Source of the DNA: Candidatus Woesearchaeota archaeon | Lineage (GTDB): Archaea > Nanobdellota > Nanobdellia > Pacearchaeales > GW2011-AR1 | Assembly (NCBI GenBank): GCA_964409005.1 | Contig: CAYPBR010000002.1 | Location: 1-53,308 of the forward strand | Length of the DNA: 53,308 nt | Reading direction: 5' to 3' | In this document: positions 2,497-50,879 of the stretch, in pieces | Layout: the number at the start of each line of letters is the position of its first letter | How positions within the stretch are numbered: the first letter of the stretch is position 1 | The notes under the pieces: model-generated | What the model was told of the DNA's origin: nothing | The model's input: the letters and a program-made list of their open reading frames with translations, nothing else | Databases searched by the model: none | Made by a program: the position numbers and the translations under genes

Positions 2497-3294
2497 ATGA
2501 ATTGTAGTAACACAAAATTAAAAAGTCTTTATTGGAATGATGATTTATCAATATCTCAGGTGGCTACTTTGATTGGTGTTGATAGGTCTAGGATATATAA
2601 GCAAATGAAAGATTTTGATATTCCAAGAAGAACACTTTCTGAATCAAAAAAGAGAAAAAACCCAAAATTAAGCTTAAAATTAAAGAAGTTGTATAAAGAA
2701 GGGAAAATGAAAAGTTTTAATAAAGGGAAAACACTACCAGAAAAAACGAAAAGAAAAATGGGTGAATCTAGAAAGAGACTTATACAGGAGGGTAAAATTC
2801 CAAGGATAAATCCTGGTTCATTCAAAAAAGGTCATCTTTCTTGGAGTAAAGGAAAAACTAAAGAAAATTCTGAATGGGGGAGAAGGCAATCTAATAGGAT
2901 GCTAACTAATAATCCTATGAGTAATCCAGAGGTAGTAAAAAAACAGTTAAGAGCACTAAACCTAAAACCAAATAGGCCTGAAAGAGAAATGATTAATTTA
3001 TTTAAAATAAATAATCTTCCATTTCATTATGTTGGTAATGGCCAATTAATTATTGGGGGCAAATGTCCTGATTTTGTTTGTAATCCTTCAAAAAAAGTTA
3101 TACTTTTACACGGAAATTATTGGCATTATTTAAAACAAAAAAAGATAAACCCTTCTTTAACTAGAAAACAAGTTGAAGAGAGAGATAGAAATCATTATAG
3201 AAAGAATTTCTTTGATTGTTTGATTATTTGGGATTACGAACTTAAAGGTAATTTTCAAGTTGTAAATAAAATAAAAAGGTTCATGGAGAATTAA
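2497..3294 (+). CDS. homing-endonuclease-like protein (HTH + NUMOD3-like repeats + Vsr/DUF559-like nuclease domain)
   Basis: LSISQVATLIGVDRSRIYKQM HTH; GKTLPEKTKRKM and GHLSWSKGKTKE repeats. C-terminus CPDF...HGNYWH...LIIWDYEL resembles Vsr-type PD-(D/E)xK domains. Confidence 0.6.
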   Translation: MNCSNTKLKSLYWNDDLSISQVATLIGVDRSRIYKQMKDFDIPRRTLSESKKRKNPKLSLKLKKLYKEGKMKSFNKGKTLPEKTKRKMGESRKRLIQEGKIPRINPGSFKKGHLSWSKGKTKENSEWGRRQSNRMLTNNPMSNPEVVKKQLRALNLKPNRPEREMINLFKINNLPFHYVGNGQLIIGGKCPDFVCNPSKKVILLHGNYWHYLKQKKINPSLTRKQVEERDRNHYRKNFFDCLIIWDYELKGNFQVVNKIKRFMEN

Positions 3295-6214: not shown

Positions 6215-6985
6215 ATGAAAACAAAACTGATTTTTACAATTTTAGCAACAGTTGTTTTAATGACTTCTTTAATTGCTGCATCAATGTTAATTCCGGTAAG
6301 TGACAAGGCAAAAGAGAATGCAAGGGCACCAGAGAATTCACCTGTAATAACAGAAACAGAAGGTGGCGAATGGGATTTAGAAAGAGTTGATTTTATCCAC
6401 TATGCAAAACCAGAGAGTCCTCCAGGGTTGGATAAACCAAAGGGGCAGGGTGGAGCATCTTGTTATAAACTTCTTGGTGTAAAATGGAAATCTCTTCCTG
6501 TAAGTTATGTAATTAACCCAACTAATCCTGATTTATTAGAAGGGTCAGTGGTTAGTGCAATATCAGCATCTGCGGAAACATGGGACGATGCAATAACTAG
6601 TGAATTGATTGATGACACTTTTACAGTAGACAATTCTGCTATGTATGGTGTACAAAACTTTGAGAATGTAGTTGCTTTTGGAGACTATCCACAAGAAGGA
6701 GTAATTGGAGTAACATCTGTATGGTATACAAGAAGAGGAAAGCAAATAGTTGAATTTGACATACTTTTGGATATAGATTTTAATTGGTCTTTAAGTGGAG
6801 AAGCAGGTAAAATGGATTTACAGAATATAGCTACACATGAATTTGGTCATGCATTAGGTTTGGGACATCCAGACAATACTTGTACTGAAGAGACAATGTA
6901 TGCTTATTCTGATTATGGAGAAGATAAGAAGAGAATACTTGAACCTGCAGATATAGAAGGATTGCAAAAGATGTATGGTGTCTAA
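6215..6985 (+). CDS. secreted zinc metalloprotease, matrixin (M10)/metzincin type
   Basis: Signal/anchor peptide; HEFGHALGLGH (HExxHxxGxxH) followed by a Met-turn (ETMYAY). Confidence 0.8.
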   Translation: MKTKLIFTILATVVLMTSLIAASMLIPVSDKAKENARAPENSPVITETEGGEWDLERVDFIHYAKPESPPGLDKPKGQGGASCYKLLGVKWKSLPVSYVINPTNPDLLEGSVVSAISASAETWDDAITSELIDDTFTVDNSAMYGVQNFENVVAFGDYPQEGVIGVTSVWYTRRGKQIVEFDILLDIDFNWSLSGEAGKMDLQNIATHEFGHALGLGHPDNTCTEETMYAYSDYGEDKKRILEPADIEGLQKMYGV

Positions 6986-7082
6986 ACCAATTTAGAAGAA
7001 GGTGAAAAAGCATTTGCTCCAGAGAATCATAAATGGCTTACTGTTGAAGAAAATAAAGAAATACACTACAAATTAAGAGAAA

Positions 7083-7367
7083 ATGTTCTACAAGACATAC
7101 ACTCTAGATACATCAGTAAATCCTCTTAGCCAAAGGTTTATTCTAATTTCTCGTTATGAATTAAGTAAGGCAAGAAGAATAATTCAAACAGGGGGAAAAA
7201 TATTAGAGTCTAATAGAAGCGTAAGTGTATCACATGTTTTAGGAACATCTAGGATAAAAATGCAAGATGAAGAAGATATTTCTATAGAAACTTCATGGTG
7301 TCTTAATTTAAGGTCAAGAACAAATAGTGGTTTAGAAGCTACAGCCAAAGAATTAGGATTACCTTAA
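7083..7367 (+). CDS. hypothetical protein (doubtful)
   Basis: ORF track only; no motif; no obvious RBS. Confidence 0.25.
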   Translation: MFYKTYTLDTSVNPLSQRFILISRYELSKARRIIQTGGKILESNRSVSVSHVLGTSRIKMQDEEDISIETSWCLNLRSRTNSGLEATAKELGLP

Positions 7368-7372
7368 TTTTA

Positions 7373-7401
7373 AAATAGAAATATTTATAAAGGTTAAATA
7401 C
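7373..7401 (+). promoter_or_regulatory. archaeal-type BRE/TATA promoter (conserved copy 4 of 4)
   Basis: AAATAGAAATATTTATAAAGGTTAAATAC. Confidence 0.5.
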
Positions 7402-7467
7402 TTAACTAAAATATAAAATGGTTAATATTTTCCCTATTTATAATATAATCATGAAAGGAGGGAAAAA

Positions 7468-8157
7468 ATGACAGAAGAACATAAAGAAAAAGGAACAATA
7501 ACAATAAAAAAAGATATGTTATGGAAAGTTGGAACTTTTGTATTCGCAGCGTTGTTTGTTATTTTGTTAATAGTTTCTCTAAAACCAACAGAAAAAGTCA
7601 TAGATGACTCTGAACAAAAACTTAGTGGTGTGCCTTTGTATAAACAATATGCACAAGAATTTAATCTTGATAGTTCACAATTCAATAATTGTCTAGATTC
7701 TGGGAAGTATGCAGAGAATGTAAAAGTAGATTTACAATATGGTGCAAGTCTTGGAGTTAGAGGAACGCCCGGGTTTTTTATCAATGGTATTGCAGTAAGT
7801 GGAGCTCAGCCATTTTCTGTATTCCAGCAAATAATAGAAGAAGAATTAAATAACCCAGGCAATGGAATTGAAGTAGAAATTGGAGATTCCCCTGTAAAAG
7901 GAGATGCTAATGCTCCAATTACAATAGTTGAGTTTTCTGATTTTCAGTGTCCATTTTGTGCAAGATTCTATACTCAAACATTGGGACAGATTGAGAGAGA
8001 ATATATAGATACGGGAAAGGTCAAATTAGTCTACAAAGATTTTCCATTGAATAGTATACACCCAAATGCACAAAAAGCTGCAGAAGCTGCACGTTGCGCT
8101 GGAGAACAGAATAAATTTTGGGAATATCATGATAAGTTATTTGAATTTGGAGTTTAA
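7468..8157 (+). CDS. membrane-anchored DsbA-like thiol:disulfide oxidoreductase with circularly permuted domain order
   Basis: TM anchor. A DsbA C-terminal half (LDSSQFNNCLDS...GVRGTPGFFINGIAVSG) comes first. It is followed by a DsbA N-terminal half (APITIVEFSDFQCPFCARFY...KFWEYHDKLF), and the ORF then stops. Confidence 0.7.
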   Translation: MTEEHKEKGTITIKKDMLWKVGTFVFAALFVILLIVSLKPTEKVIDDSEQKLSGVPLYKQYAQEFNLDSSQFNNCLDSGKYAENVKVDLQYGASLGVRGTPGFFINGIAVSGAQPFSVFQQIIEEELNNPGNGIEVEIGDSPVKGDANAPITIVEFSDFQCPFCARFYTQTLGQIEREYIDTGKVKLVYKDFPLNSIHPNAQKAAEAARCAGEQNKFWEYHDKLFEFGV

Positions 8158-8169
8158 ATTATTCTGAAA

Positions 8170-8682
8170 ATGAGGTTTAATAAAGAAAGAATCCAAAGAG
8201 TAAAGGATGCCTTATTTAAAAAACCGTATATTTTTTATTTTATCTTTATTTTTTTAGTTTATATCGGACTTAATATCTGGATAAACCAGACATATTCTAT
8301 ACTCCCTGTGCTCGGAGGTTTTTCCAAAGTTTTTTTAATCCCATATTTATTATTTAGTTTTCTGATAATTCCTTTCCTGGTCGCATTAACGATTAATCTT
8401 ACAATTATAAAATTCAAAGAAGCTAGTTTAATTGGTGGTAAAGACGGAGGATTTACTTTTTTAGGTGTATTTGGAGGAATTTTTGGGGGGGCATGCCCTG
8501 GTTGTTTTGTTGGATTATTCCCAGCATTCTTGGGATTGTTCGGGATTACAGCATCATTAAGTATCTTACCTTTGTATGGTCTAGAAATTCAAATGATTTC
8601 TATTGCCTTGCTCATAGTTGCAGTAATCTTCTTAACAAGAGATGTGGTTTGTGAAGTTCCAATTAAAAATATTAAAAAATAA
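8170..8682 (+). CDS. polytopic membrane protein with intramembrane CPGC motif (candidate redox partner of the DsbA-like protein)
   Basis: 4-5 hydrophobic helices; GGACPGCFVGLFP lies within a helix; located immediately downstream of the DsbA-like gene. Confidence 0.45.
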   Translation: MRFNKERIQRVKDALFKKPYIFYFIFIFLVYIGLNIWINQTYSILPVLGGFSKVFLIPYLLFSFLIIPFLVALTINLTIIKFKEASLIGGKDGGFTFLGVFGGIFGGACPGCFVGLFPAFLGLFGITASLSILPLYGLEIQMISIALLIVAVIFLTRDVVCEVPIKNIKK

Positions 8683-8683
8683 A

Positions 8684-8830
8684 ATGGTTAAATTATGTGA
8701 TATTTGTGAAAAAAGAATACCTTTAGATAACTTTATTTATACTGGTTTTCTTAGTTGTTATGACTTTTGTAGGGAATGTAGACAGAAAATATTTAATTAT
8801 GTTAAAAAGAAAGTTAAAAGCAAGAAATAA
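8684..8830 (+). CDS. small zinc-ribbon protein
   Basis: CDICEK...CRECRQK; track ORF trimmed to ATG 8684. Confidence 0.4.
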   Translation: MVKLCDICEKRIPLDNFIYTGFLSCYDFCRECRQKIFNYVKKKVKSKK

Positions 8831-8832
8831 AA

Positions 8833-9216
8833 TTAATCAATAATTCTATAACTACCCCATTCATCTTGTTCAAGAATTAAAAAACTTATTTTTTCAGATT
8901 TCTTAGGTTTTACCTTCGGTTTTTTCACTATTTTATAAGAATTCTTTTTTATGTTATGAATTTTATCATGGCAAGGCCTACAAAGGGTTTGACTATTTTT
9001 TTCTGAATAATCTTTTTTCTTATACAGTGGAACTATATGGTTGATTGTTAAATTTTTATCTTTTCCACATTTTTCACAATTATCTTTAATAAATTGTCTA
9101 GAGTATCCTCTATTTCTTCTCCAATTCTTACGTTTTCGCCCTTCAATATTATATTTTACTACAATATCTTCTTCTACACGAAAACCGTTTCTTATTGCTT
9201 CTTTTGTTAATTCCAT
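8833..9216 (-). CDS. HNH endonuclease
   Basis: CEKCGKDKNLTINHIVP...NSQTLCRPCHDKIH. Confidence 0.8.
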   Translation of the reverse strand: MELTKEAIRNGFRVEEDIVVKYNIEGRKRKNWRRNRGYSRQFIKDNCEKCGKDKNLTINHIVPLYKKKDYSEKNSQTLCRPCHDKIHNIKKNSYKIVKKPKVKPKKSEKISFLILEQDEWGSYRIID

Positions 9217-9656: not shown

Positions 9657-9662
9657 ATGGAC

Positions 9663-10097
9663 CTATTGAGAATCAAACTCAAGCTTTTTCGTCTCTTGAT
9701 ACGATTTGATTTTTTCCCAACTAAAACCAAAATATCTCATACACCAATGAATTCCTTTGTGGCAATGAAAACAAACATACACATATTCTTTACTCTTCAA
9801 TTCTCTTATCAAATCAACTAAAGACAAACTCATTAATCTTTTATGCTCTTTATTATCTTTCCTATGTGTTACTAATCTATCTTTATAACCACAAAATAAA
9901 CACTTTGTCCCAAGATATTCATTAATAATCTTCCTTCTTTTCATTCTATGGGTCTTATTGTGTGTATTTTTCCTTTCTTTTAATTCTTCTTCTGTTAGTT
10001 TTCTTGGTTGTGGTGTTGTCCTGGTTATTAATCCTTTTCTTTTTCTTCTTGCCCAATCCCTACCATATCTCCTTTGAATCTTTATATCTTTATACAT
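9663..10097 (-). CDS. intron-encoded HNH endonuclease (144 aa)
   Basis: MYKDIKIQRRYGRDW...CLFCGYKDRLVTHRKDNKEH...VCFHCHKGIHW. The ATG is 41 nt inside the intron and the stop is 30 nt inside the 3' exon. The longer track ORF (to 10235) is a read-through of tRNA sequence. Confidence 0.7.
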   Translation of the reverse strand: MYKDIKIQRRYGRDWARRKRKGLITRTTPQPRKLTEEELKERKNTHNKTHRMKRRKIINEYLGTKCLFCGYKDRLVTHRKDNKEHKRLMSLSLVDLIRELKSKEYVYVCFHCHKGIHWCMRYFGFSWEKIKSYQETKKLEFDSQ

Positions 10098-10138
10098 AAG
10101 ATATTTGGGTTTAATAAAGTATTTAAATCTTTCGTTTT
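9693..10138 (-). other. bulge-helix-bulge (archaeal splicing-endonuclease type) tRNA intron carrying an HNH ORF
   Basis: 3-nt bulges a-g-A38 and C36-A37-a flank the 4-bp helix UUUG/CAAG. The h' helix pairs intron nt 2-7 with nt -6 to -11. The intron sits at the canonical 37/38 position. Confidence 0.65.
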
Positions 10139-10177
10139 TGCAAACGAAATGTACTATCATTATACTATAGGCCCAAA

Positions 10178-10249
10178 AGCCGCCGGAGAGATTCGAACTC
10201 CCGACATCCGGTTTACAAAACCGATACTCTACCACTGAGCTACGACGGC
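10178..10249 (-). tRNA. trnT: tRNA-Thr(TGT)
   Basis: GCCGTCG/CGGCGGC, U73, D GCTC-AGTGGTA-GAGT, anticodon arm TCGGT-TTTGTAA-ACCGG, T GGGAG-TTCGAAT-CTCTC. Confidence 0.9.
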
Positions 10250-10911
10250 ATATAATTTAGATGATTTTTATCTAATATTATTAAGTTAATATTGTTTTGT
10301 TTTCTTACTCTCTGTATTTTATCTTTATCTTTTTTAATTAAATAATCATTTTTTGTATCATAATATGTATTTGTCTTTGGAATATAAAAATCTGGATAAT
10401 ACCAATGCCATTCTTTATTTTTATCAATCCATTTTATTGGCTTTGGTCTGACCCAATATATTTTCTGTTTATTCATACTTTTAGCAAAAATTAATTCATA
10501 ACTTGATTGGAGATAAAATATTTCTCCTTGAATATTCTTATAGTATATTTTCTGTTTCGATGTATGTCCTCCAAGTTTGTTTTTCTTAGCTATTTTACTT
10601 AACTTTTTTTTGGTTTTTTTATTGTGTGGATGTCCCTTTCCCGTATTTATTTTACTTAAATGTAATTTTAACTTTTTTGCTTTTTTAATACCAAATATTT
10701 CTTCATATGTTTTGCCTTTTCTTGGTGATTTGAGTTTGCCTTTTCTTGCTTTATTTGAACAAGATAATGAACAATATTTTTGTAAAGAATTTATTTTAAT
10801 TTCTATTTCTTTTTCACAAATATTACATTTAATTTTCTTTCTATCTACCATTAATAAACCTTTATTCCATGCATCTTGTCCTTTAGTATATACCATCTTA
10901 TTATAAACCAT
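10240..10911 (-). CDS. homing-endonuclease-like protein (zinc ribbon + NUMOD3-like repeats + PD-(D/E)xK domain)
   Basis: AWNKGL; CNICEKE...CSLSC; GKTYEEIFG and HPHNKKTKKKLSKIAKK repeats. C-terminus is SSYELIFAKSM...YYPDFYIP...YYDTKNDY. The stop overlaps the tRNA-Thr 5' end. Confidence 0.6.
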   Translation of the reverse strand: MVYNKMVYTKGQDAWNKGLLMVDRKKIKCNICEKEIEIKINSLQKYCSLSCSNKARKGKLKSPRKGKTYEEIFGIKKAKKLKLHLSKINTGKGHPHNKKTKKKLSKIAKKNKLGGHTSKQKIYYKNIQGEIFYLQSSYELIFAKSMNKQKIYWVRPKPIKWIDKNKEWHWYYPDFYIPKTNTYYDTKNDYLIKKDKDKIQRVRKQNNINLIILDKNHLNYMPS

Positions 10912-11203: not shown

Positions 11204-11276
11204 AGCAGGGTGGAGCAGCGGAGTGCTCGCGAGGCTCATATCCTCGAGGTCGTAGGTTCAAATCCTATCCCTGCTA
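11204..11276 (+). tRNA. trnM: tRNA-Met(CAT), A1:U72 (initiator-like in archaea; Ile2-type cannot be excluded)
   Basis: AGCAGGG/CCCTGCT, A73, D GAGC-AGCGGAGT-GCTC, anticodon arm CGAGG-CTCATAT-CCTCG, T GTAGG-TTCAAAT-CCTAT. Confidence 0.9.
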
Positions 11277-32009: not shown

Positions 32010-32179
32010 CTTCTTAACTCCTTAAATTTCTTGCATGGGCATTTCTTTCCTTCAACCCACATAGCACACTTTCCATTCTTAAAATGTTGTCTTTTAGTAT
32101 GCCCACAATTTGCACATGGTGTATTATCTTTACCGTTCATTTCTTCTCTTTCATAGGTTGTGTTATAATCTTCCGTCAT
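32006..32179 (-). CDS. Cys/His zinc-binding protein (57 aa)
   Basis: Hand-translated ...TPCANCGHTKRQHFKNGKCAMWVEGKKCPCKKFKELRR; ATGA overlap with the phosphoesterase stop. Confidence 0.45.
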   Translation of the reverse strand: MTEDYNTTYEREEMNGKDNTPCANCGHTKRQHFKNGKCAMWVEGKKCPCKKFKELRR

Positions 32180-33843
32180 CTTCCTTCCTCTGTTGGATTT
32201 AATTTTCTAGCAAAATCACTTAAAAAATATTCATCAGTATCAATATCATATAAACATAATCTTCCATTCCAACCAGCACCACAATCAACATTTATAAGTT
32301 TAGCATATTTATCTCCGTGTTTATTAATAAATAAAGGTTTAGCATCAATATTTTCTGTGGAAGTGTGTCCAACAAAGATTTTATTCCATTCTTTAATTTT
32401 TAAACCATTTACCATACGATTAATTAATTCTCTATCCCAAGTTAAGTGTTCTGGGCTAAAATCTTTTGGGTGTTTACCTTTTTTAGATTTACCCTCTTTA
32501 TAATCAAATCCCCCATGAACAAATAGCATTTTATCAACTTCATAATAATAAACTCCGTTATTAAAAAAGTCTTTGTGAGATTGTGGCATTTTTTTATAAT
32601 GATACCCATGTGATTCATAAGATTTTTTTGTTGCTTCTCCGCCCTGCATTAACCAAACATTTTCAGCCCACCCATTTGCTATATAATTCATGAACCAGCA
32701 ATTTCCAGTGAAAGATACTTTTCCATTTAAACGAGTTATAAGGGTTCCTTTTGGCATTGTAAAACAAAGGAAATTATTCACTCCAGTAGTTTTACATTTT
32801 ACACACTTCCAATTTAGTATCTTTTTGTATATTTTAATCAAATATTGTGGTTTACCATTTTTGAATCCGCTTCTACCACCTTTTACAACTGAGCAAGAAT
32901 ACCCATTTGTAATCATAATAATTTGAATTAAATCTGCGTCTTTTTTGTTTATTGTTGTAACTCGTATCGTCCCACTATCTAAAGTATGACCATCTGTAAT
33001 CTGTAATTCCTCAAGAAATATTTTAGATTGAATCTTACTTATATTTTTAAAAGAATTTGGAAATTGTTTTTTACCATTTAAAAATTTAAATACCTTTCTT
33101 GCTTCTTCTCCATATATCCTAATTAAATATGGTTGTAATTTATTGATTCCAGACATTGTAGCTTTTTTAAAAGTATAAGAAATATTTAATTTTTCTAATA
33201 TTCCTCTTAATCTATCAATTTTTCTCTTTTTAGATAATTTAAATTGAATTCTTTTTTTATTTTCTGATGAAGAATAAAGACATCCATCACAAATTACCCA
33301 TACTAAAAATCTTAAATAATCATCAGTAAACTTTAAACCTTTAAGGTTAATTTCTCCAAAATGCCTAAACCTTGAAAGGTTGATTTTTTTATTTGTTGGG
33401 AATTCCCCTGCCTTTACAATCTGATTATCAACAACAAGATTATGTCTAGGTGTAACATGCTGTTTCATATTATAACTTTCAAAAATTAGTCCAGTATTCC
33501 TATGAATTGGAATCTTTGATAATGGTTTTGTGTATTCTATTTTTCCAGTTTTAATATCAAAGTTCGCAATCTTTTCATCTTTAATATTCTTTGCAATCAC
33601 CCACCCATTCTCTGTTAAAATCTCAGTATCTTCTATCACAGAGTCGTGGTTTCCTAAGACTAAAGTTTTATTTTTAACTTTAATTAATTCTTCAACAACT
33701 TCATAAGAATAACTATAACCATCCACAACGTCTCCGATTATGATTAATTCATCCTTTTTGTAATCAAACTTTGCTCGTTTGAACACTTGTTTCAATGCTT
33801 TGAAATTTCCATGCAAATCTCCCAAAACTAGCCTACGTTTCAT
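32176..33843 (-). CDS. calcineurin-type (PPP/lambda-phosphatase-like) metallophosphoesterase interrupted by an intein
   Basis: Extein motifs GDLHG, GDVVDGYS, GNHD | intein | ...FVHGGF, VGHTS. Confidence 0.8.
   Translation of the reverse strand: MKRRLVLGDLHGNFKALKQVFKRAKFDYKKDELIIIGDVVDGYSYSYEVVEELIKVKNKTLVLGNHDSVIEDTEILTENGWVIAKNIKDEKIANFDIKTGKIEYTKPLSKIPIHRNTGLIFESYNMKQHVTPRHNLVVDNQIVKAGEFPTNKKINLSRFRHFGEINLKGLKFTDDYLRFLVWVICDGCLYSSSENKKRIQFKLSKKRKIDRLRGILEKLNISYTFKKATMSGINKLQPYLIRIYGEEARKVFKFLNGKKQFPNSFKNISKIQSKIFLEELQITDGHTLDSGTIRVTTINKKDADLIQIIMITNGYSCSVVKGGRSGFKNGKPQYLIKIYKKILNWKCVKCKTTGVNNFLCFTMPKGTLITRLNGKVSFTGNCWFMNYIANGWAENVWLMQGGEATKKSYESHGYHYKKMPQSHKDFFNNGVYYYEVDKMLFVHGGFDYKEGKSKKGKHPKDFSPEHLTWDRELINRMVNGLKIKEWNKIFVGHTSTENIDAKPLFINKHGDKYAKLINVDCGAGWNGRLCLYDIDTDEYFLSDFARKLNPTEEGR
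32701..33642 (-). mobile_element. intein (314 aa) with LAGLIDADG homing-endonuclease domain
   Basis: Inserted directly after GNHD. Starts SVIEDTEILTENG (Ser1) and ends VSFTGN followed by Cys+1. LAGLIDADG-like blocks are LRFLVWVICDGCLY and IFLEELQITDGH. Confidence 0.75.
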
Positions 33844-40031: not shown

Positions 40032-40793
40032 TCATCCCCTTAAATTAATTAGGAATTTATTTATTTCTTCAATTTCTTCAGGTGTAGGAACTTCTGGCAT
40101 TTTACATTTAAGATATGCCTTATCTATTTTATCAAAGAGGTCTTTAATCTTTTTATCAAGAACCCCCTCATCTATCTCTTTAAGTGGTTCATTTTCTAAT
40201 CCTGCTTTCTTAATTTTTAGTAATTTATTAACTTCTTTAATTTTAAAATGTTTGTTGAGTTCTTCTATATTTGGTTTAATTAATCCTGTTTGAAGGCAAT
40301 AAATTCCTGCCATCAATCCCCGCAGAACATATAAATATTTTTTTACTGTATTTTTACCTCTAAGAATGAACCTTTTATAATTAAATTCTGCTAATCCTCT
40401 ATAAGAATGGTATACCCCTTTCTTTCCAAAAGCATTATTAACTAATTGTTTAAGTTTCACAAAATCAGCATTTTTATAAAATTGGGGAGCATTTATCTCC
40501 TCTAATATATTACAATTCCCTTTAATCGCCAAACTAACCAATTTTTTAAGTTCAAATAAGACTATATCTTTGTTTTCTTCAGATTTAACTTCAATAACCT
40601 CTATTGGCTTATCTAATCCTAAGAATTTTTCCTTCCCTAAAATAAAACACCCCCTTATATCTATATCACTATCTTTACTTTCCCATCCGTATAAATTGCT
40701 TCCGCTAATGTAAAGATTTAATATTTGTCCACCTTTTCTGTTAACTGTATTTTTAATCTTACTGATTAATTGTGTTTCTTCTTTTTTGTTCAT
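40032..40793 (-). CDS. Pol-beta-superfamily nucleotidyltransferase (RlaP/PF10127-like)
   Basis: LYISGSNLYGWESKDSDIDIRGCF. Confidence 0.6.
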   Translation of the reverse strand: MNKKEETQLISKIKNTVNRKGGQILNLYISGSNLYGWESKDSDIDIRGCFILGKEKFLGLDKPIEVIEVKSEENKDIVLFELKKLVSLAIKGNCNILEEINAPQFYKNADFVKLKQLVNNAFGKKGVYHSYRGLAEFNYKRFILRGKNTVKKYLYVLRGLMAGIYCLQTGLIKPNIEELNKHFKIKEVNKLLKIKKAGLENEPLKEIDEGVLDKKIKDLFDKIDKAYLKCKMPEVPTPEEIEEINKFLINLRG

Positions 40794-40999: not shown

Positions 41000-41150
41000 T
41001 GAATAAATTCATGGGCTTCTACGGGAAATCTCCCGATAGTTTCCTGCTTCGCAGACACTTGCCCTATTTTGTATTTTTTCAAATTCAAAAGAAGGTCTTA
41101 CTGTATCTCCACAGGCTTGAAATTCCGTCTGCCCGACGGTATTGTTTAAA
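41000..41150 (-). ncRNA. candidate omega-RNA (reRNA) scaffold overlapping the tnpB 3' end
   Basis: The GC-rich core 41013-41064 reads (minus strand) GGGCAAGTGTCTGCGAAGCAGGAAACTATCGGGAGATTTCCCGTAGAAGCCC. It contains hairpins CTGC-GAA-GCAG and CGGGA-GATT-TCCCG, closed by GGGC/GCCC. Boundaries are not determinable by eye. Confidence 0.45.
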
Positions 41151-42232
41151 ATATTTTTTGTTAGTTTTTTAATATTAAGTGAGGCGTTTAAATCTCTATC
41201 AATTTTTAATCCGCAATCTTCACACCCAAATATTCTTTTATCTAAAGTCATATTTTGTTTATGTCCACAAGAAGAACAAGTTTGAGATGTTGGTTCAAAT
41301 CTTCCAACTTCAATTATCTCTCCTTCAAAAATTGTTTTATAATATTTTAAGTATGAAAAGAAACTTCCCCAACTAACATCAGAAATACTTTTTGCTAAGC
41401 GATGATTTTTAACCATTCCTTTAATGTTTAAATTTTCAATTCCAATATATTTTATATCCCTTGCTAACTGCCTTGCTAATTTTTTATGGAAATCTTCTCT
41501 TTGTCTTGTTATTTTTATATGTTGATTTGCTAATTTAATTATTGATTTTTTTCTGTTCTTGCTTCCTTTCTTTTTCTTGCTATGTCTTCTGCTTAATCTT
41601 TTTAATTTTTTCTCACTTCTTCTTAAAAACTTTGGATTATCAAATTCTCTTTTATTAGAACAAACTAAAAACTTTTTAATTCCAACATCTAATCCTTCAA
41701 CTTCTGATTTAAAATTATTATCTACTTTTTCTACTGGAACTTCGTCACAAGAAAACACAGCATACCATTCATCATTCTCTTTTTTTATTGTTAGTGTTTT
41801 AATTGTTCCTTCTATCTCTCTATGTTTTTTGATTTTAAGCATTCCAATTTTAGAAACATATAATCTATTTGGATACATCTCTTGCCCATATTGAGGAAAT
41901 GTTATTGATTGGTAAAATACTCTTTTATGAAATTTAGGAAATCCAGGTGTTTCTCCATTTTTTACTCTTCTAAAGAAATGTTTAAATGCGTCAGAAATTC
42001 TTTTTGGAATGTTTTGTTTTACTTGTGAATGAAGTTGTTTTGTTTCAAAATCCTTCAAAATATTATTCATATCAAATTCAGACAGAGTTTCTTTCGTCCC
42101 TAAATATATTTGCTGATGAATATCTAACATTTGATTATATAAAAAACACGCTTGGTCTAATGCTCTTTCTAATCTTTTTTCTTGTTTTATAATTGGATAT
42201 ATTCTAAATTTATATGATTTTTTATTTAACAT
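41009..42232 (-). CDS. tnpB: TnpB (IS200/IS605-family OrfB, RuvC + zinc-finger RNA-guided nuclease)
   Basis: N-terminus YKFRIYP...QKRLERAL. RuvC-I is GLDVGIKKF and RuvC-II is IGIENLNIKGM. Zinc finger CSSCGH...CEDCG is followed by DRDLNASLNI. No tnpA is adjacent. Confidence 0.85.
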   Translation of the reverse strand: MLNKKSYKFRIYPIIKQEKRLERALDQACFLYNQMLDIHQQIYLGTKETLSEFDMNNILKDFETKQLHSQVKQNIPKRISDAFKHFFRRVKNGETPGFPKFHKRVFYQSITFPQYGQEMYPNRLYVSKIGMLKIKKHREIEGTIKTLTIKKENDEWYAVFSCDEVPVEKVDNNFKSEVEGLDVGIKKFLVCSNKREFDNPKFLRRSEKKLKRLSRRHSKKKKGSKNRKKSIIKLANQHIKITRQREDFHKKLARQLARDIKYIGIENLNIKGMVKNHRLAKSISDVSWGSFFSYLKYYKTIFEGEIIEVGRFEPTSQTCSSCGHKQNMTLDKRIFGCEDCGLKIDRDLNASLNIKKLTKNILNNTVGQTEFQACGDTVRPSFEFEKIQNRASVCEAGNYREISRRSP

Positions 42233-44470: not shown

Positions 44471-44608
44471 TTAATAGCACTCCTTACATACATATCCCTC
44501 TTTAACTTTAATAGCATTAACTCTCGCTAACCAACACTCACATTTTGGGCAATATACATTACTTGGCTCCCCATCAAATACTTCTTTTGGTTTTTCTTTT
44601 TTCTTCAT
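44471..44608 (-). CDS. zinc-ribbon mini-protein (45 aa)
   Basis: Hand-translated MKKKEKPKEVFDGEPSNVYCPKCECWLARVNAIKVKEGYVCKECY. It overlaps the end of the upstream gene in another frame. Confidence 0.35.
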   Translation of the reverse strand: MKKKEKPKEVFDGEPSNVYCPKCECWLARVNAIKVKEGYVCKECY

Positions 44609-45152
44609 TTTCTTTATAATTCTGAAATGGTTTTAAATTAAAAATCCTTTCATCTTTTTTCATATGACAACTTCTACATAACCACTCAAAATCATTAATA
44701 TCCCTTTTATATTCTCCACTAATATTTGCTAAATCATATGGGTGTTTTATTTTACATATCTCACAGAATTTTGGTTTTTGTTTATAAACTTTAACCCATT
44801 GATGAAGAGCACTACAACCAACATTATCCCCTTTCCAATTTGGGTTTCTTTTACCTTTTATATCTCTCTGGAAATTATGTTTTCCTACTTGGTGTTGTAT
44901 TGATTTTCGTGAACATTTTAATTGCTTCTGCAGTTTCTTTAAATCTCCTTGTGGGTATTCTCTTTTAAGTATTTCAATATCTTCTTTTGTCCAAAATTTA
45001 TTTTTTGGTGTATAACCTTTAAAATATCTAATAATCCTTGAATGGGTTGTTCCATGAATTTTAGCTATCTTTCTAAAAGATACCCCCTTTTTTCTTAAAA
45101 TCCTAAAATTTTTTAATAATTTTGTGATTATCAAAACCCTTTTTTGAACCAT
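44574..45152 (-). CDS. HTH + HNH-family homing endonuclease (ANISGxYKRDI paralogue 3)
   Basis: VSFRKIAKIHGTTHSRIIRYF HTH; GKRNPNWKG; LHQWV...CEICK...DLANISGEYKRDINDFEWLCRSCHMKKD. Start trimmed to ATG 45152. Confidence 0.7.
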   Translation of the reverse strand: MVQKRVLIITKLLKNFRILRKKGVSFRKIAKIHGTTHSRIIRYFKGYTPKNKFWTKEDIEILKREYPQGDLKKLQKQLKCSRKSIQHQVGKHNFQRDIKGKRNPNWKGDNVGCSALHQWVKVYKQKPKFCEICKIKHPYDLANISGEYKRDINDFEWLCRSCHMKKDERIFNLKPFQNYKENEEKRKTKRSI

Positions 45153-45174
45153 ATCTAATCTAAATATTTCACAT

Positions 45175-45627
45175 TTATAAACTTTTCCTTTCTTTCCTTC
45201 CCCTCTGTTTTTTTCTACATCCCTCACAACTCTTCCATTTTTTTTCAATTTTCTTTCCCCCACATACTAGACATCTATCTTCCTTTTTCCACCTTTCACG
45301 CCTTCTTTCAAAACTATTTTGAATATTCTTTATGTGTCTTTTTCTGAATTCTTTATCATTGTTATATCTTTCATTTAAATATTGTTTTTTGTAGGCATAT
45401 CTTTTTTTCTCCTTTTCCTTTCTCTGTTTTTTAGGTAGATTATAGTAATAATTTAATGCTCTTTTATTTGCTCTTTTGCGTTCTTTTTCATTTAAATGAT
45501 ATTGAATTGTGGAAGCACAAAGTCCAAACATTTCTCCTATTTTTGCATAAGATAAATTTATCTTTCTTAGTTTTACCATAATTCTTTTTATTTCTGGAGT
45601 AACTTTTCTAAAACGATAGTGTTTCAT
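45175..45627 (-). CDS. HTH DNA-binding protein with basic Y/K/R tail (paralogue of 1562..1885)
   Basis: LSYAKIGEMFGLCASTIQYHL; YAYKKQYLNERYNNDKEFRKRH; C-terminal CLVCGG...CEGC. Confidence 0.6.
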   Translation of the reverse strand: MKHYRFRKVTPEIKRIMVKLRKINLSYAKIGEMFGLCASTIQYHLNEKERKRANKRALNYYYNLPKKQRKEKEKKRYAYKKQYLNERYNNDKEFRKRHIKNIQNSFERRRERWKKEDRCLVCGGKKIEKKWKSCEGCRKKQRGRKERKSL

Positions 45628-45902: not shown

Positions 45903-46360
45903 TATAATAACCTCGTTGTATTGTTCTTTATGTAGTCTGAATCCAAATGTATTAAACTACTGCCACATTTTGGACAATAAAATAATTCTTCGTATTCTCC
46001 AGAAGGTATTGAAGTAACCATATTCATCACTTGTTTTTTATTCAATTTAGATGTTTTATTATCACAAGTATATCTTTTATAACGGGGGTCGCCATAATAA
46101 GGTTTTGGATATGGTTTTCTTGGTTTCCAAGGATTTGGTATGTCTGGATTTGGATAAGGTTTAGGTGTCCATGGGGGTAGTTCATCTGGTTCATCCATTT
46201 TTAGAAAGTTTTTAAGTAAGTCTTTATGTTTACAATTTCCACACACAAGGACAACTTTATAGAGTTCCTTCTCATCCATATCTTTATGCTTATCTAAAAA
46301 CTCTTTAGCAGAGATTACTTCTCCTTCATTTTTCTTTTCTTCTTTTTCTTCCATTTTCAA
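45902..46360 (-). CDS. split zinc-ribbon protein with Pro-rich linker
   Basis: CGNCKH...PPWTPKPYPNPDIPNPWKPRKPYPKPYY...CPKCG. Confidence 0.5.
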   Translation of the reverse strand: MKMEEKEEKKNEGEVISAKEFLDKHKDMDEKELYKVVLVCGNCKHKDLLKNFLKMDEPDELPPWTPKPYPNPDIPNPWKPRKPYPKPYYGDPRYKRYTCDNKTSKLNKKQVMNMVTSIPSGEYEELFYCPKCGSSLIHLDSDYIKNNTTRLL

Positions 46361-48111
46361 AAATCCTTTAATTTAATTTTAAAGCACATTCTTAATCCAA
46401 ATTTTGACAGGAGGGCAGGTCTACTTCTTACAACATATCCTTCCACATACTTCTTTTTATTAACTTCTTTCAAGAGATTTAACCAATAATTATAATCTAA
46501 TATGTCCTTACCTTCAAATTTAAACCACTTAACCATTTCAATTCCAGTAGATTTACTGAATTTTATTACATCGTTCCAATCAAAGAAACTATTTCCACAT
46601 TTTACATCAAATAATTTAAATGTTGGTTTTTCTGAATAGGTTTTTCCCTGTTTTTGTATATTCCCTCCACAAACTTCACCGAAAATTGTAACGAGCGATT
46701 TACTACCTTCAAAATAATCTTTTATTTTTTGCATATCTATATCTTTAATGGCTTCAAAATAAACATGATGTTCTTTGTCATCTTCAATAAAGTCGCTTCT
46801 TTTTCTAACTAATATTTCCTTTTCTGGGGTTAGTATTAAACCGCAATTTGTGTTATGAACTAAAACACCATTCGTAAAATAATTGGAGTTATCTTTAATA
46901 GTTAAATCATATTGGAAATCTTGTTGAAATTTATATTTAATTGGTAATTTATTTGAGATGTTCATTATTTTAACACCAAACAGTTCTGAATTTTTTGATA
47001 AGGATTTTAATTTATTTAAAACATTGCTATTCATCCTATATTTTTTTGGTAATTTATACCACATTCCTTTACAAATATAGGGATAAATCAAACTAAATAA
47101 TTTTTCACTTCCATCTGCTGTCAGAATTAAAGTAGCCCCTTTATAATCAAAAACCTTGCTTTCTATATCATATTTTATTTTGAACATATTTTTTAAAAGA
47201 GCAACTTCTTTAAAACTAAAACCATTTGTTGCAAAATGGATTCTTGCTCTTTGTTTATCACTAAAGTGAGCACTTCCATCATCCATATACCATATTGCTA
47301 TTGAAAGTGGGGTTAATTCATTTATCCATTTAGGATTAATTCTTTTCTTTCCATTTACTAAACAATATTCTTTAATTAAATCACTTATACTTAAATTTAT
47401 TATAGAATTTGCTCTCCTATTTGGCAAACTTCCTTTAAATCCCCCTTTATACCCTTTTCCTTCATTTATTATACCTTGTAGTAACTTTAATTTGTAATCA
47501 AAATAATCAGATTGTTTTATGCTATGGATAAAACTGAAACCATAATTTTTAATTGAAGTAGAATATATGCTTGAATCTCCTAATAATCCTCCAAGAATTA
47601 TTTGTTTGGTTTCAAGCGATAATTTATCTAATAAATGATTTATTTTCATCCCTTTCTTTAATTTTTTTGCTTCTATCCATTTATTTTTTATATAAAATTT
47701 ATGGTTATCTGTGCAAGTAATGTGTTTTATTGGTTGTTTATTGTTTTTGCTTTTTATCCAAATATTCAAAAAAGGGCGTAATCTTTTTTCTTTATGATAA
47801 TTGATTATTGGTTTAAATTCCGTCTTTTTTGTTTGGATATTATAGGACAAAACGTTTATTTTTTGTTTTTTATCATATTGTATTTTTTCAACGAGCCTCC
47901 CAATTGGAATTAAACCTTTATCTGTAAGCACTGTATTTCCATAATGGAGACATCCATCTATTTTTTCTGTAACAACAAACTCTTTAATGTTCTCTATCCC
48001 AATTAATTTAGGATTGATTACTCCTTTAATTAATTTGAATTTGCTATCCCTATCAAAAATTGTGTAAATTTTATGATATTTTGTTTGGCTTCTTAATTCT
48101 TCTTTTTCCAT
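46357..48111 (-). CDS. Rnl2-like ATP-dependent RNA ligase (PF09414-type) interrupted by an intein
   Basis: Extein: motif I TEKIDG | intein | TNCGL; FGEVCGGNIQK; FKLFDV; VEGYVVRS; CFKIKLKDF. Confidence 0.8.
   Translation of the reverse strand: MEKEELRSQTKYHKIYTIFDRDSKFKLIKGVINPKLIGIENIKEFVVTEKIDGCLHYGNTVLTDKGLIPIGRLVEKIQYDKKQKINVLSYNIQTKKTEFKPIINYHKEKRLRPFLNIWIKSKNNKQPIKHITCTDNHKFYIKNKWIEAKKLKKGMKINHLLDKLSLETKQIILGGLLGDSSIYSTSIKNYGFSFIHSIKQSDYFDYKLKLLQGIINEGKGYKGGFKGSLPNRRANSIINLSISDLIKEYCLVNGKKRINPKWINELTPLSIAIWYMDDGSAHFSDKQRARIHFATNGFSFKEVALLKNMFKIKYDIESKVFDYKGATLILTADGSEKLFSLIYPYICKGMWYKLPKKYRMNSNVLNKLKSLSKNSELFGVKIMNISNKLPIKYKFQQDFQYDLTIKDNSNYFTNGVLVHNTNCGLILTPEKEILVRKRSDFIEDDKEHHVYFEAIKDIDMQKIKDYFEGSKSLVTIFGEVCGGNIQKQGKTYSEKPTFKLFDVKCGNSFFDWNDVIKFSKSTGIEMVKWFKFEGKDILDYNYWLNLLKEVNKKKYVEGYVVRSRPALLSKFGLRMCFKIKLKDF
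46852..47952 (-). mobile_element. intein (367 aa) with LAGLIDADG homing-endonuclease domain
   Basis: Starts CLHYGNTVLTDKGLIPIG right after KIDG and ends GVLVHN followed by Thr+1. LAGLIDADG blocks are ILGGLLGDSSIY and SIAIWYMDDGS. Confidence 0.85.
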
Positions 48112-50144: not shown

Positions 50145-50879
50145 TTAGTTCCTAGTTATATCTAAAATTATCTCTTTATTTTCTGAATATTGATAATCAT
50201 ACAATTTAGATAATAAAGATTGAAAGTGTTCTGTCCATTGTTTTCTATCTTTATTTGTTAGCATATGGCATTTTCTACATAAACTTATACAATTCTGAGG
50301 AACACTCATTAACTTATCATAATTAATGTGATGAACATCAAGTGCCATGTTTAACTTTTCTCTGTGAATTCCACAAACCATACAAATTTGATTATCTCTT
50401 TTTCTTATTGCTATTCTAAATTTATTATTGAATGATTCATCATAAGGTTCAAAAGATATTCCCCCTTGCCAGTTTGGGTGTTTCTCTCCACTATTTATCT
50501 CTCTTAATTTTTGTTTAGTTTTTTCTGATACTATATTTCCTGTTAATGCTTTACTTATATTTCTTGCTCTGTCTTTATTTTCACTAATTTTTCTTTTAGT
50601 CTTTTCTGAATGTTTTTTACCCGTCATTCCATGTGGAGGGCAATTTTTCAAACTTTTTTTAAGTTTTTCTATAGTTTCCTTAGTGTGTTTTTTACCATAA
50701 AAAGGATTTTTTTCTCCCTCATTCCAACCTTTTAATCCTTCATTCCAAGGTTTATTCCCTTTTTTAAATGCAGTGGGTCTAACATAATTTATTCTTTTAT
50801 CAGTATCTTTTGTAAGTCCTTTGTTCCAAGGTATTCTACCTTTAGAAAACTTTTTATTAGAATATTTTTTAAGAGTCAT
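50145..50879 (-). CDS. HNH homing endonuclease with NUMOD3 repeats
   Basis: PWNKGL and GKKHTKETIEKL / GKKHSEKTKRKISE / SEKTKQKLRE repeats; CMVCG...LDVHHINYD...ISLCRKCHMLTN. Confidence 0.8.
   Translation of the reverse strand: MTLKKYSNKKFSKGRIPWNKGLTKDTDKRINYVRPTAFKKGNKPWNEGLKGWNEGEKNPFYGKKHTKETIEKLKKSLKNCPPHGMTGKKHSEKTKRKISENKDRARNISKALTGNIVSEKTKQKLREINSGEKHPNWQGGISFEPYDESFNNKFRIAIRKRDNQICMVCGIHREKLNMALDVHHINYDKLMSVPQNCISLCRKCHMLTNKDRKQWTEHFQSLLSKLYDYQYSENKEIILDITRN

Follow-up and report, generated by a model that had tools for sequence, protein, structure and literature searches.

A putative mobile bulge-helix-bulge intron carrying a homing-endonuclease gene in a viral tRNA-Ala gene

Background

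How the introns of archaeal and eukaryal transfer RNA (tRNA) genes originated and spread is an old question. To my knowledge, these introns are spliced by proteins and have no known mobility machinery, their transposition having been inferred only from sequence similarity. The question arises again at a locus on contig CAYPBR010000002.1 (assembly GCA_964409005.1), of which the whole analysed stretch of 53,308 nucleotides (nt) is hereafter called the window. There, within an array of tRNA genes, a tRNA-Ala(UGC) gene is split at position 37/38 by a 446-nt insert, most of which is an open reading frame (ORF) for a putative nuclease. What is this insert? A nuclease-bearing intron at 37/38 would make the question of intron origin and spread testable.

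I argue that the insert is probably a mobile archaeal bulge-helix-bulge (BHB) intron carrying a homing-endonuclease gene. At the level of the family to which the insert belongs, the BHB-intron reading is held with high confidence; for the window copy, owing to a competing hairpin and to decayed relatives, confidence is moderate. What is new is how known parts are combined, a BHB intron and an HNH homing endonuclease occurring together in a viral tRNA gene; no new principle is involved.

Results and discussion

A tRNA-Ala gene split at position 37/38

The 5' exon (10174-10139, on the minus strand, as are all features of the split gene) is 36 nt long and comprises the acceptor 5' strand, the D arm, the anticodon-stem 5' strand (10149-10145) and nucleotides 32-37. 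The 35-nt 3' exon (9692-9658) begins with A38 and continues with the anticodon-stem 3' strand (9691-9687), a 4-nt variable loop, the T arm, the acceptor 3' strand and A73. Between A37 and A38 lie the 446 nt of the intron (10138-9693). Exon and insert coordinates and sequences, re-read from the DNA, are those of the original prediction, and ARAGORN agrees with its 71-nt tRNA-Ala cloverleaf bearing G3:U70 and A73: it calls the joined exons tRNA-Ala(tgc), with an acceptor stem of 7 base pairs (bp), G3:U70 included, and D, anticodon and T stems of 4, 5 and 5 bp. All stem pairs are intact (21/21), and by direct reading the universal nucleotides U8, A14, G18, A21, U33, G53, U54, U55, A58 and C61 are present. 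The atypical elbow ascribed to this tRNA is real, for G18 is followed by A19 in the D loop and the T loop has U56, giving A19-U56 where G19-C56 is expected; being compensatory, this exchange argues for continued structural selection on the window tRNA-Ala. No second tRNA-Ala gene was found in the 53-kb window.

Standard tRNA finders miss genes of this kind, both programs having failed on the window gene: ARAGORN even in its intron mode, with introns of up to 1000 nt, and Rfam at the gathering score. Below that threshold, Rfam places a tRNA match at 10106-10174 (minus strand; 22 bits, E 0.05), over the 5' exon and the start of the intron; here the CGAAA of a promoter-like element (see below) imitates the anticodon-stem 3' strand, and the same pairing forms the competing hairpin.

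The bulge-helix-bulge motif

The hBHBh' motif characterises canonical archaeal tRNA introns at 37/38, as set out by Marck and Grosjean (2003; cited in PMC11291895) and in a review (PMC4090602). The rule applied here was that the central helix H pairs nucleotides 32-35 with intron positions q-5 to q-2, q being the last intron nucleotide, that the bulges consist of 36, 37 and i1 on one strand and of q-1, q and 38 on the other, and that h' runs from i2 against q-6 onward. Scripted in this way, the geometry of the window copy shows 5/5 bp in h (the exon-exon anticodon stem), 4/4 in H and 5/6 in h'. The 5' strand of H is UUUG (nucleotides 32-35, 10144-10141), paired with CAAG (9698-9695) by way of one G-U, the latter strand also encoding the C-terminal tail of the ORF product. 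C36, A37 and the first intron nucleotide make up the 3-nt 5' bulge (10140-10138); the last two intron nucleotides, a and g, together with A38 make up the 3-nt 3' bulge (9694-9692). Helix h' joins AAACGA (intron nucleotides 2-7, 10137-10132) to UCGUAU (9704-9699), with one A.A mismatch. By the established BHB rule, according to which cleavage follows the second nucleotide of each bulge, the cut sites are predicted at 10139/10138 and 9693/9692. The canonical hBHBh' junctions originally claimed for this site are thereby borne out; the pairs then given for h' were correct, but its 3' strand was numbered one position off. In 400,000 position pairs drawn at random within the same 6 kb, H = 4 with h' of at least 5/6 arises at a frequency of 9.1e-4.

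Could the insert instead be a self-splicing intron, of group I or group II, that contains an HNH ORF, as in phage genes and in the anticodon loops of bacterial tRNAs? HNH homing endonucleases such as I-HmuI and I-TevIII typically ride in phage group I introns, and bacterial tRNAs have group I introns in the anticodon loop. The window insert is like these cases in that an HNH-type gene rides in an intron and, as regards the bacterial tRNAs, in its anticodon-loop site. Unlike these ribozymes, it gave no match to any Rfam group I or group II intron model, either at the gathering score or at E <= 10, and its motif is the target of a protein endonuclease. Moreover, coding sequence takes up 405 of its 446 nt (exactly 135 codons), and the 41 nt that precede the ORF, with nothing left behind it, cannot house a ribozyme core; the last exon nucleotide is not a U that forms a G.U pair in a P1 helix; and the window tRNAs are archaeal in type (see below). 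The probability of a self-splicing intron is negligible.

The intron family and its covariation

Close and distant relatives of the ORF turned up in database searches, and a full HMMER pass over 1.84 billion representatives gave 1,433 clusters (50% identity) at E <= 1e-3; cut-offs of 1e-10 and 1e-30 left 496 and 121. Forty-five homologous loci were fetched (L numbers in the following), and at least three tRNA genes are present at 15 of 41 of them. Because the intron mode of ARAGORN had missed the split gene, intronic copies were searched for by brute-force joining of all exon-end pairs, judged by ARAGORN and by direct sequence reading.

Ten family members sit at 37/38 of tRNAs with different anticodons. 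The four intron nucleotides facing nucleotides 32-35 vary with the locus and yet pair with them, H being CTTC/GGAG in L008 (anticodon UCC), TCTG/CAGA in L009 (UGU; C33 pairs with an intron G), CTTC/GAAG in L011 (UCG), CCCA/TGGG in L016 (CAU, with A1-U72) and CTTG/CGAG in L025 (UGG); in L007 (UAC), H has 3/4 pairs. At random (p, q) positions in these loci, H = 4 with an h' run of at least 3 arises at 0.18% and the full motif at 1.7e-5. Viral tRNA-Ala genes that have no intron are also present, at 654-725 of L007 and 1321-1394 of L009.

Covariation was measured on an alignment of the junction regions of 10 loci. Paired cells amount to 89.3% against 56% after shuffling, a value that none of 500 shuffles reached, and pairing falls to 35-47% when the partners are slid by 1-3 columns. 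H is 95% and h' 77% paired, and each pair in both helices has changed on both sides. Folded without constraint over the same loci, RNAalifold returns 5 bp, a 3-nt bulge and 4 bp, mirrored on the other strand, plus an inner helix. The 3' end of the intron thus covaries with each anticodon, the motif being kept by compensatory changes. Introns of this kind occur in many tRNA genes of DPANN archaea and of the viruses of these archaea, and this distribution suggests how such tRNA introns spread. Three other searches returned no match: one of IMG/VR for the exact 5' exon, a protein-pattern scan of IMG/VR and a first scan of species-representative genomes.

Among the side observations on the family, a tRNA-Asp(GUC) with an intron of about 14 nt at 37/38 adjoins a free-standing member in L023 (around 1600-1690), so that small ORF-less BHB introns also occur in these contigs. 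Many members, such as those of L026 and L027 (2461-3237) and of L028 (2569-3594), are long, have two nuclease domains or repeated helix-turn-helix modules, and lie away from tRNA genes; the family is therefore wider than its tRNA-associated forms.

Copies in DPANN genomes

One family protein (P0008) originates from metagenome-assembled genomes (MAGs) of Aenigmarchaeota. At L033 (Aenigmarchaeota MAG GCA_012975005.1) the ORF (10001-10420) lies between the 16S (6497-8991) and 23S (from 10835) ribosomal RNA (rRNA) genes as located by Rfam, whereas at L035 and L036 (Rfam), and at L041, it stands directly past the 16S gene. The last of these, a Woesearchaeota MAG, came from a second genome scan, along with two further Aenigmatarchaeota MAGs of the same arrangement (L039 and L040, the latter on a 265-kb contig). 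Complete or near-complete genomes among the carriers are GCA_012975005.1, GCA_011772255.1, JAZDKZ01 and CAYFJW01. At three loci a tRNA-Ala(UGC) with G3:U70, downstream of the 16S gene, is split at 37/38 by the family ORF; that of L033 sits in the 16S-23S spacer. The motif is perfect in L036 and L041 (H CTTG/CAAG, h' AAGAACC/GGTTTTT) and in L033 (H CTTG/CAAG, h' GAAACC/GGTTTC), and the stop codon of the cellular copies straddles or abuts the 3' splice site (..CAAGTG|A).

A tRNA-Ala adjoining rRNA genes is unlikely to be a pseudogene, and these copies are therefore the best indirect evidence that the introns of the family are spliced. As to the HNH-bearing BHB intron first announced for a virus-borne tRNA, the virus copy is supported, but the intron is not virus-specific, as it also occurs in tRNA-Ala(UGC) of Aenigmatarchaeota and Woesearchaeota. 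The family is found as a cellular tRNA-Ala intron in DPANN archaea, as an intron in several tRNAs of archaeal viruses, and free-standing between tRNA genes.

The cellular tRNA-Ala of L033 (9885-10490) appears to have three introns, of which one, of about 38 nt, interrupts the D loop and another the T loop, the third being the ORF intron at 37/38. The 16S gene of the same locus spans 2.5 kb and contains one LAGLIDADG-like ORF; the equivalent region of L034 contains two.

Promoter and expression of the ORF

After the 5' splice site comes a block, (C/G)AAAG-TTTAAATA, that fits an archaeal transcription factor B recognition element (BRE) followed by a TATA box. In the window, both lie inside the intron, the BRE-like CGAAAGA at 10134-10128 and the TATA box TTTAAATA at 10127-10120. 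Archaeal TATA boxes are usually centred near -26; here the box starts 28-30 nt before the ATG in nine loci (the window, L001, L003, L005, L032, L039, L040 and the free-standing L012 and L037). In L007-L011 the distance is 41-43 nt, and GTGAT or GGTGAT, resembling a Shine-Dalgarno sequence, follows some 7-9 nt before the ATG; L016 is devoid of the block and has its ATG at intron nucleotide 8. The arrangement in the window predicts a leaderless messenger RNA (mRNA), made as a transcript of its own. Having a conserved BRE/TATA promoter, the ORF would not depend on the pre-tRNA transcript; the original statement that it can be translated only from unspliced RNA does not hold up against such an element 30 nt before the ATG, which predicts a separate mRNA.

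The CGAAAG after the 5' exon was also considered as a copy of the anticodon-stem 3' strand, and as such a sign of target-site duplication or of insertion into the variable loop. This was rejected, since (C/G)AAAG-TTTAAATA precedes the ORF in other tRNA introns and in free-standing copies too, which identifies the block as BRE/TATA promoter. In the window copy, the promoter-derived CGAAAG creates the competing hairpin.

An internal promoter would yield an RNA ending in the 3' half of the tRNA, and a BHB could form between two molecules. The tRNA might thus be made in trans, as the split tRNAs of Nanoarchaeum are, with the 5' half transcribed as part of the upstream array, a second RNA of ORF and 3' half coming from the internal promoter, and the two paired by h' and H and trans-spliced. 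An RNA starting near the ATG would exclude the 5' strand of h' (10137-10132), which sits on the other half anyway. Yet with no more than 446 nt between the halves, both on one strand of a tightly packed array, a cis transcript is simpler, and nothing demands a reaction in trans, which is accordingly regarded as very improbable.

The encoded protein

The ORF (10097-9663, minus strand) has 144 codons and, as originally described, fills nearly all of the insert: its start lies 41 nt inside the insert and its stop codon ends 30 nt inside the 3' exon. The exon part, which is not conserved, amounts to the last nine sense codons and the stop; the conserved domain ends at about residue 131 and is wholly in the intron. 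Across 43 aligned members, residues C66, C69, H78, H85, C112, H113, H117 and W127 are invariant, while at least 90% of the members have C109. An AlphaFold model (mean predicted local distance difference test score, pLDDT, of 95.2) has strands at 76-79 and 105-108 followed by a helix at 110-123, and nearly all Foldseek matches to it in BFVD are HNH endonucleases (best E 9.5e-5, probability 1.0, root-mean-square deviation 2.9 A over 89 columns). The PHROG HNH matches of the protein are weak (about E 1e-3), and sequence-profile searches of PDB with it gave no family.

From the model and the alignment the protein is concluded to be a divergent HNH-fold (beta-beta-alpha-Me) nuclease with a predicted Cys4 zinc site, one His closing strand 1 and another in the helix, an assignment based on the predicted fold and the invariant Cys and His residues, not on a Pfam profile. 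Bigger family members have extra N-terminal zinc fingers or repeated helix-turn-helix modules, additions of the kind with which homing endonucleases are usually built. By analogy, the window protein may act in homing, for which the occurrence of its ORF family in introns of several tRNAs, cellular and viral, and as free-standing genes in tRNA arrays gives indirect support.

Neighbouring tRNAs and type of host

On the minus strand, the array of the window runs Thr, a 521-nt stretch without called gene, Tyr, Gln, Asp, Pro and Trp. The upstream neighbour, tRNA-Thr(UGU) (10249-10178, minus strand), ends 3 nt before the 5' exon, while 1 nt separates A73 from the start (9656) of the downstream tRNA-Tyr(GUA) (9656-9584, minus strand). 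The latter is of class I with C1-G72, the archaeal/eukaryal type; the tRNA-Gln of the window has A1-U72, as does its tRNA-Met (11204-11276), the T loop of which is TTCAAAT. A class I tRNA-Tyr with C1-G72 and A1-U72 in tRNA-Met and tRNA-Gln are archaeal/eukaryal identity features, not bacterial ones. On these three tRNAs the context of a bacterial phage was rejected. With window tRNAs of archaeal type, a splicing endonuclease can be expected in the host.

Free-standing copies, decayed relatives and the window copy

Genes of the family also stand between, or abut, intact tRNAs in L006, L012, L013, L017, L018, L019, L037, L044 and L045. The promoter is shared by the free-standing copies of L012, L013, L037 and L044; no TATA box was seen in those of L017-L019. 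In L006, L019, L044 and L045 the 3' end of the ORF overlaps the start of the next tRNA. Intronic and free-standing copies are mixed in a rough neighbour-joining tree, which has no support values and is a hint only.

One of these contigs, L006 (58% GC, 34 tRNAs, an 81-nt tRNA-Tyr starting with G1), may be a bacteriophage. At 2544-3070 it has the same nuclease domain free-standing, with a stop codon that reaches into the 5' end of an intact tRNA-Ala(UGC), so that the association with tRNA-Ala persists without an intron.

Free-standing, promoter-bearing copies between intact tRNAs (L012, L013, L037, L044; L045 is free-standing as well) lend themselves to another explanation of the window, namely that a free-standing HNH gene, promoter included, inserted into the anticodon loop of a viral tRNA-Ala that could be spared, leaving a dead tRNA gene. 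The insert would then stay in the RNA, and the BHB-like pairing would be a relic or chance. Several results speak for this explanation or otherwise weigh against an active intron in the window, and they concern the RNA fold, the nearest relatives, the protein and the host.

With regard to the fold, ViennaRNA gives as the minimum free energy (MFE) structure a local hairpin that competes with the BHB, UUUCGUUU-GCAA-AAACGAAA (10149-10130, minus strand), in which the anticodon-stem 5' strand and U32-U34 pair with intron nucleotides 2-9 in 8 bp under a GCAA cap. Folding of a mini-substrate without tRNA body or protein puts the BHB conformer 6.4 kcal/mol above this hairpin, which dominates the fold of the window copy and is its main weakness; the h' helix has in addition its A.A mismatch. 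Elsewhere the BHB conformer lies 0.3-3.5 kcal/mol from the MFE in 10 of 11 other loci, where the MFE structure keeps the h and h' helices, the exception being L005 with 6.9.

As to relatives, the clade of the window copy comprises L001, L003, L005 and L032, and these four closest ORFs (58-75% identity) all lie in damaged tRNAs. L003 has lost A38 and the anticodon-stem 3' strand; L001 and, apparently, L032 have no recognisable 5' half that pairs with the 3' acceptor strand, and the T stem of L032 is imperfect; L005 retains G3:U70 but has anticodon UGU and an H of only 3/4. Alternative joins offered by ARAGORN for L003 were judged spurious, intron sequence being used as anticodon arm. The intron of L005 (1148-1664) holds copies of both anticodon-stem strands, GGAT near its 5' end and TATCC near its 3' end, and the locus is either a decaying gene or a recombination footprint. 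In viruses, an interrupted tRNA thus often decays, the window copy being the intact one of its clade.

The protein, for its part, has no Pfam match, HNH profiles (PF01844 and relatives) included, and the HNH family is absent from the 25 most-matched Pfam families listed for the 43 members (E <= 1). Foldseek against PDB gave no significant match, the top weak ones being all HNH nucleases (Cap5, T5 SciA, Gme HNH), and the Asn of the H-N-H motif is not conserved among members. The HNH claim of the original prediction thus stands as far as the fold match and the invariant Cys and His residues go, but not at the level of a Pfam HNH profile or a conserved Asn. Finally, an archaeal host is arrived at indirectly, from tRNA identity features and cellular DPANN homologues, and splicing of the window copy, though likely, is a prediction.

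Against a dead tRNA gene there are, however, the 21 intact stem pairs and the universal nucleotides, with the compensatory A19-U56; the coincidence of H 4/4 and h' 5/6 exactly at the register defined by the tRNA (p about 9e-4); the covariation of the BHB across the family; the presence of the same intron in cellular tRNA-Ala genes beside rRNA genes; and the lack of any other tRNA-Ala gene found in the 53-kb window. On balance, a dead gene is considered unlikely.

Proposed mechanism and comparison with known systems

Taking the insert as a mobile BHB intron, the following course of events is proposed. The array would be transcribed, whereupon the anticodon stem, the 4-bp central helix and the intron-intron helix would make up the hBHBh' motif, which sequence and covariation show. 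The EndA of the host would cut both 3-nt bulges, at 10139|10138 and 9693|9692, and a ligase of RtcB type would join the exons into the 71-nt tRNA-Ala, with CCA added afterwards. Judging by the conserved motif and its spacing, the ORF would be expressed from the intronic BRE/TATA as a leaderless mRNA running into the 3' exon. Its product, a putative zinc-bound HNH-fold nuclease, would by analogy cut the DNA of intron-less tRNA genes, repair of which would copy the intron in.

Whether these elements are the first class to be recognised of BHB introns in tRNA genes that are mobile and code for protein is an evenly balanced matter. Such a class would possess a tRNA-specialised HNH-fold homing endonuclease with an archaeal promoter, would move between DPANN chromosomes and viral tRNA arrays, and would colonise new tRNAs by re-tuning the 4-bp helix. 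If true, archaeal tRNA introns at 37/38 would have a concrete mechanism of gain that acts on DNA and uses viruses as vectors. The work also defines a large nuclease family without Pfam match and gives a marker for viruses of DPANN archaea.

Some BHB introns of archaeal rRNA genes carry LAGLIDADG homing endonucleases (I-DmoI in the 23S gene of Desulfurococcus mobilis, I-PorI, I-ApeI). The likeness is considerable, as both would be protein-spliced BHB introns with a homing-endonuclease ORF in a stable-RNA gene, homing at the DNA level being presumed. Unlike the rRNA introns, the window intron is at 37/38 of a tRNA, encodes an HNH fold, and has its own BRE/TATA promoter and the BHB 3' strands inside the coding region; viral and free-standing copies exist. 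Homing-endonuclease genes occur in archaeal BHB introns (PMC6125680). According to Nawrocki et al. (2018), all known archaeal introns are of BHB type save a few group II introns; the same authors add 39 group I introns, all in rRNA genes (PMC6125680).

With canonical archaeal tRNA introns, the window intron shares the 37/38 site, the 3-4-3 geometry and the predicted dependence on EndA and RtcB. Those known to me measure roughly 11-130 nt and are not protein-coding, in contrast to the 446 nt, nearly all ORF, found here; the Haloferax tRNA-Trp intron carries a C/D box small RNA. A 2014 review of tRNA introns makes no mention of homing (PMC4090602). In the literature searched (full text, of incomplete coverage), no tRNA gene was found described as having a BHB intron that codes for protein.

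Phage tRNA clusters, too, contain free-standing homing endonucleases, such as F-TflI/II/IV of T5. The small nuclease genes among viral tRNAs at L012, L013, L019, L037, L044 and L045 are like these and like SegB of T4, a free-standing homing endonuclease in a phage tRNA cluster (PMC13096335). The window gene, unlike them, is nested in an intron that is predicted to be spliceable, and belongs to a different sequence family without Pfam match.

Gene content of the window

The window has the gene content of a tailed virus rich in mobile genes, with a tail-fibre-like protein, a Cas4-like exonuclease, TnpB and several HNH genes. Two LAGLIDADG inserts were noted, one in an RNA ligase (intein-domain matches) and one in a phosphoesterase. 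They belong to an RNA-repair-like set at 40032-40793, 46357-48111 and 32176-33843 (all on the minus strand), made up of an RlaP nucleotidyltransferase (PF10127, E 1.8e-40), the RNA ligase (PF09414), split by an intein with a LAGLIDADG_2 domain, and the metallophosphoesterase, into which LAGLIDADG_3 is inserted. Together they could repair cleaved tRNAs by healing and sealing; that they are connected to tRNA splicing is speculation.

A 223-aa ORF (10240-10911, minus strand), whose stop codon overlaps the first bases of tRNA-Thr, has weak PHROG endonuclease/HNH matches and an N-terminal zinc-finger motif (KYCSLSCSNKARKG) resembling the N termini of the free-standing members L017 and L019; it is probably another free-standing homing endonuclease adjoining the array. 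Mobile genes are unusually dense in the window, at 8833-9216 (minus), 2497-3294 (plus), 44574-45263 (minus), 50145-50879 (minus) and 41009-42232 (minus), and comprise an HNH gene of canonical type immediately downstream of the array, two further ORFs resembling HNH genes, a protein of NUMOD3+HNH composition and TnpB (OrfB_IS605).

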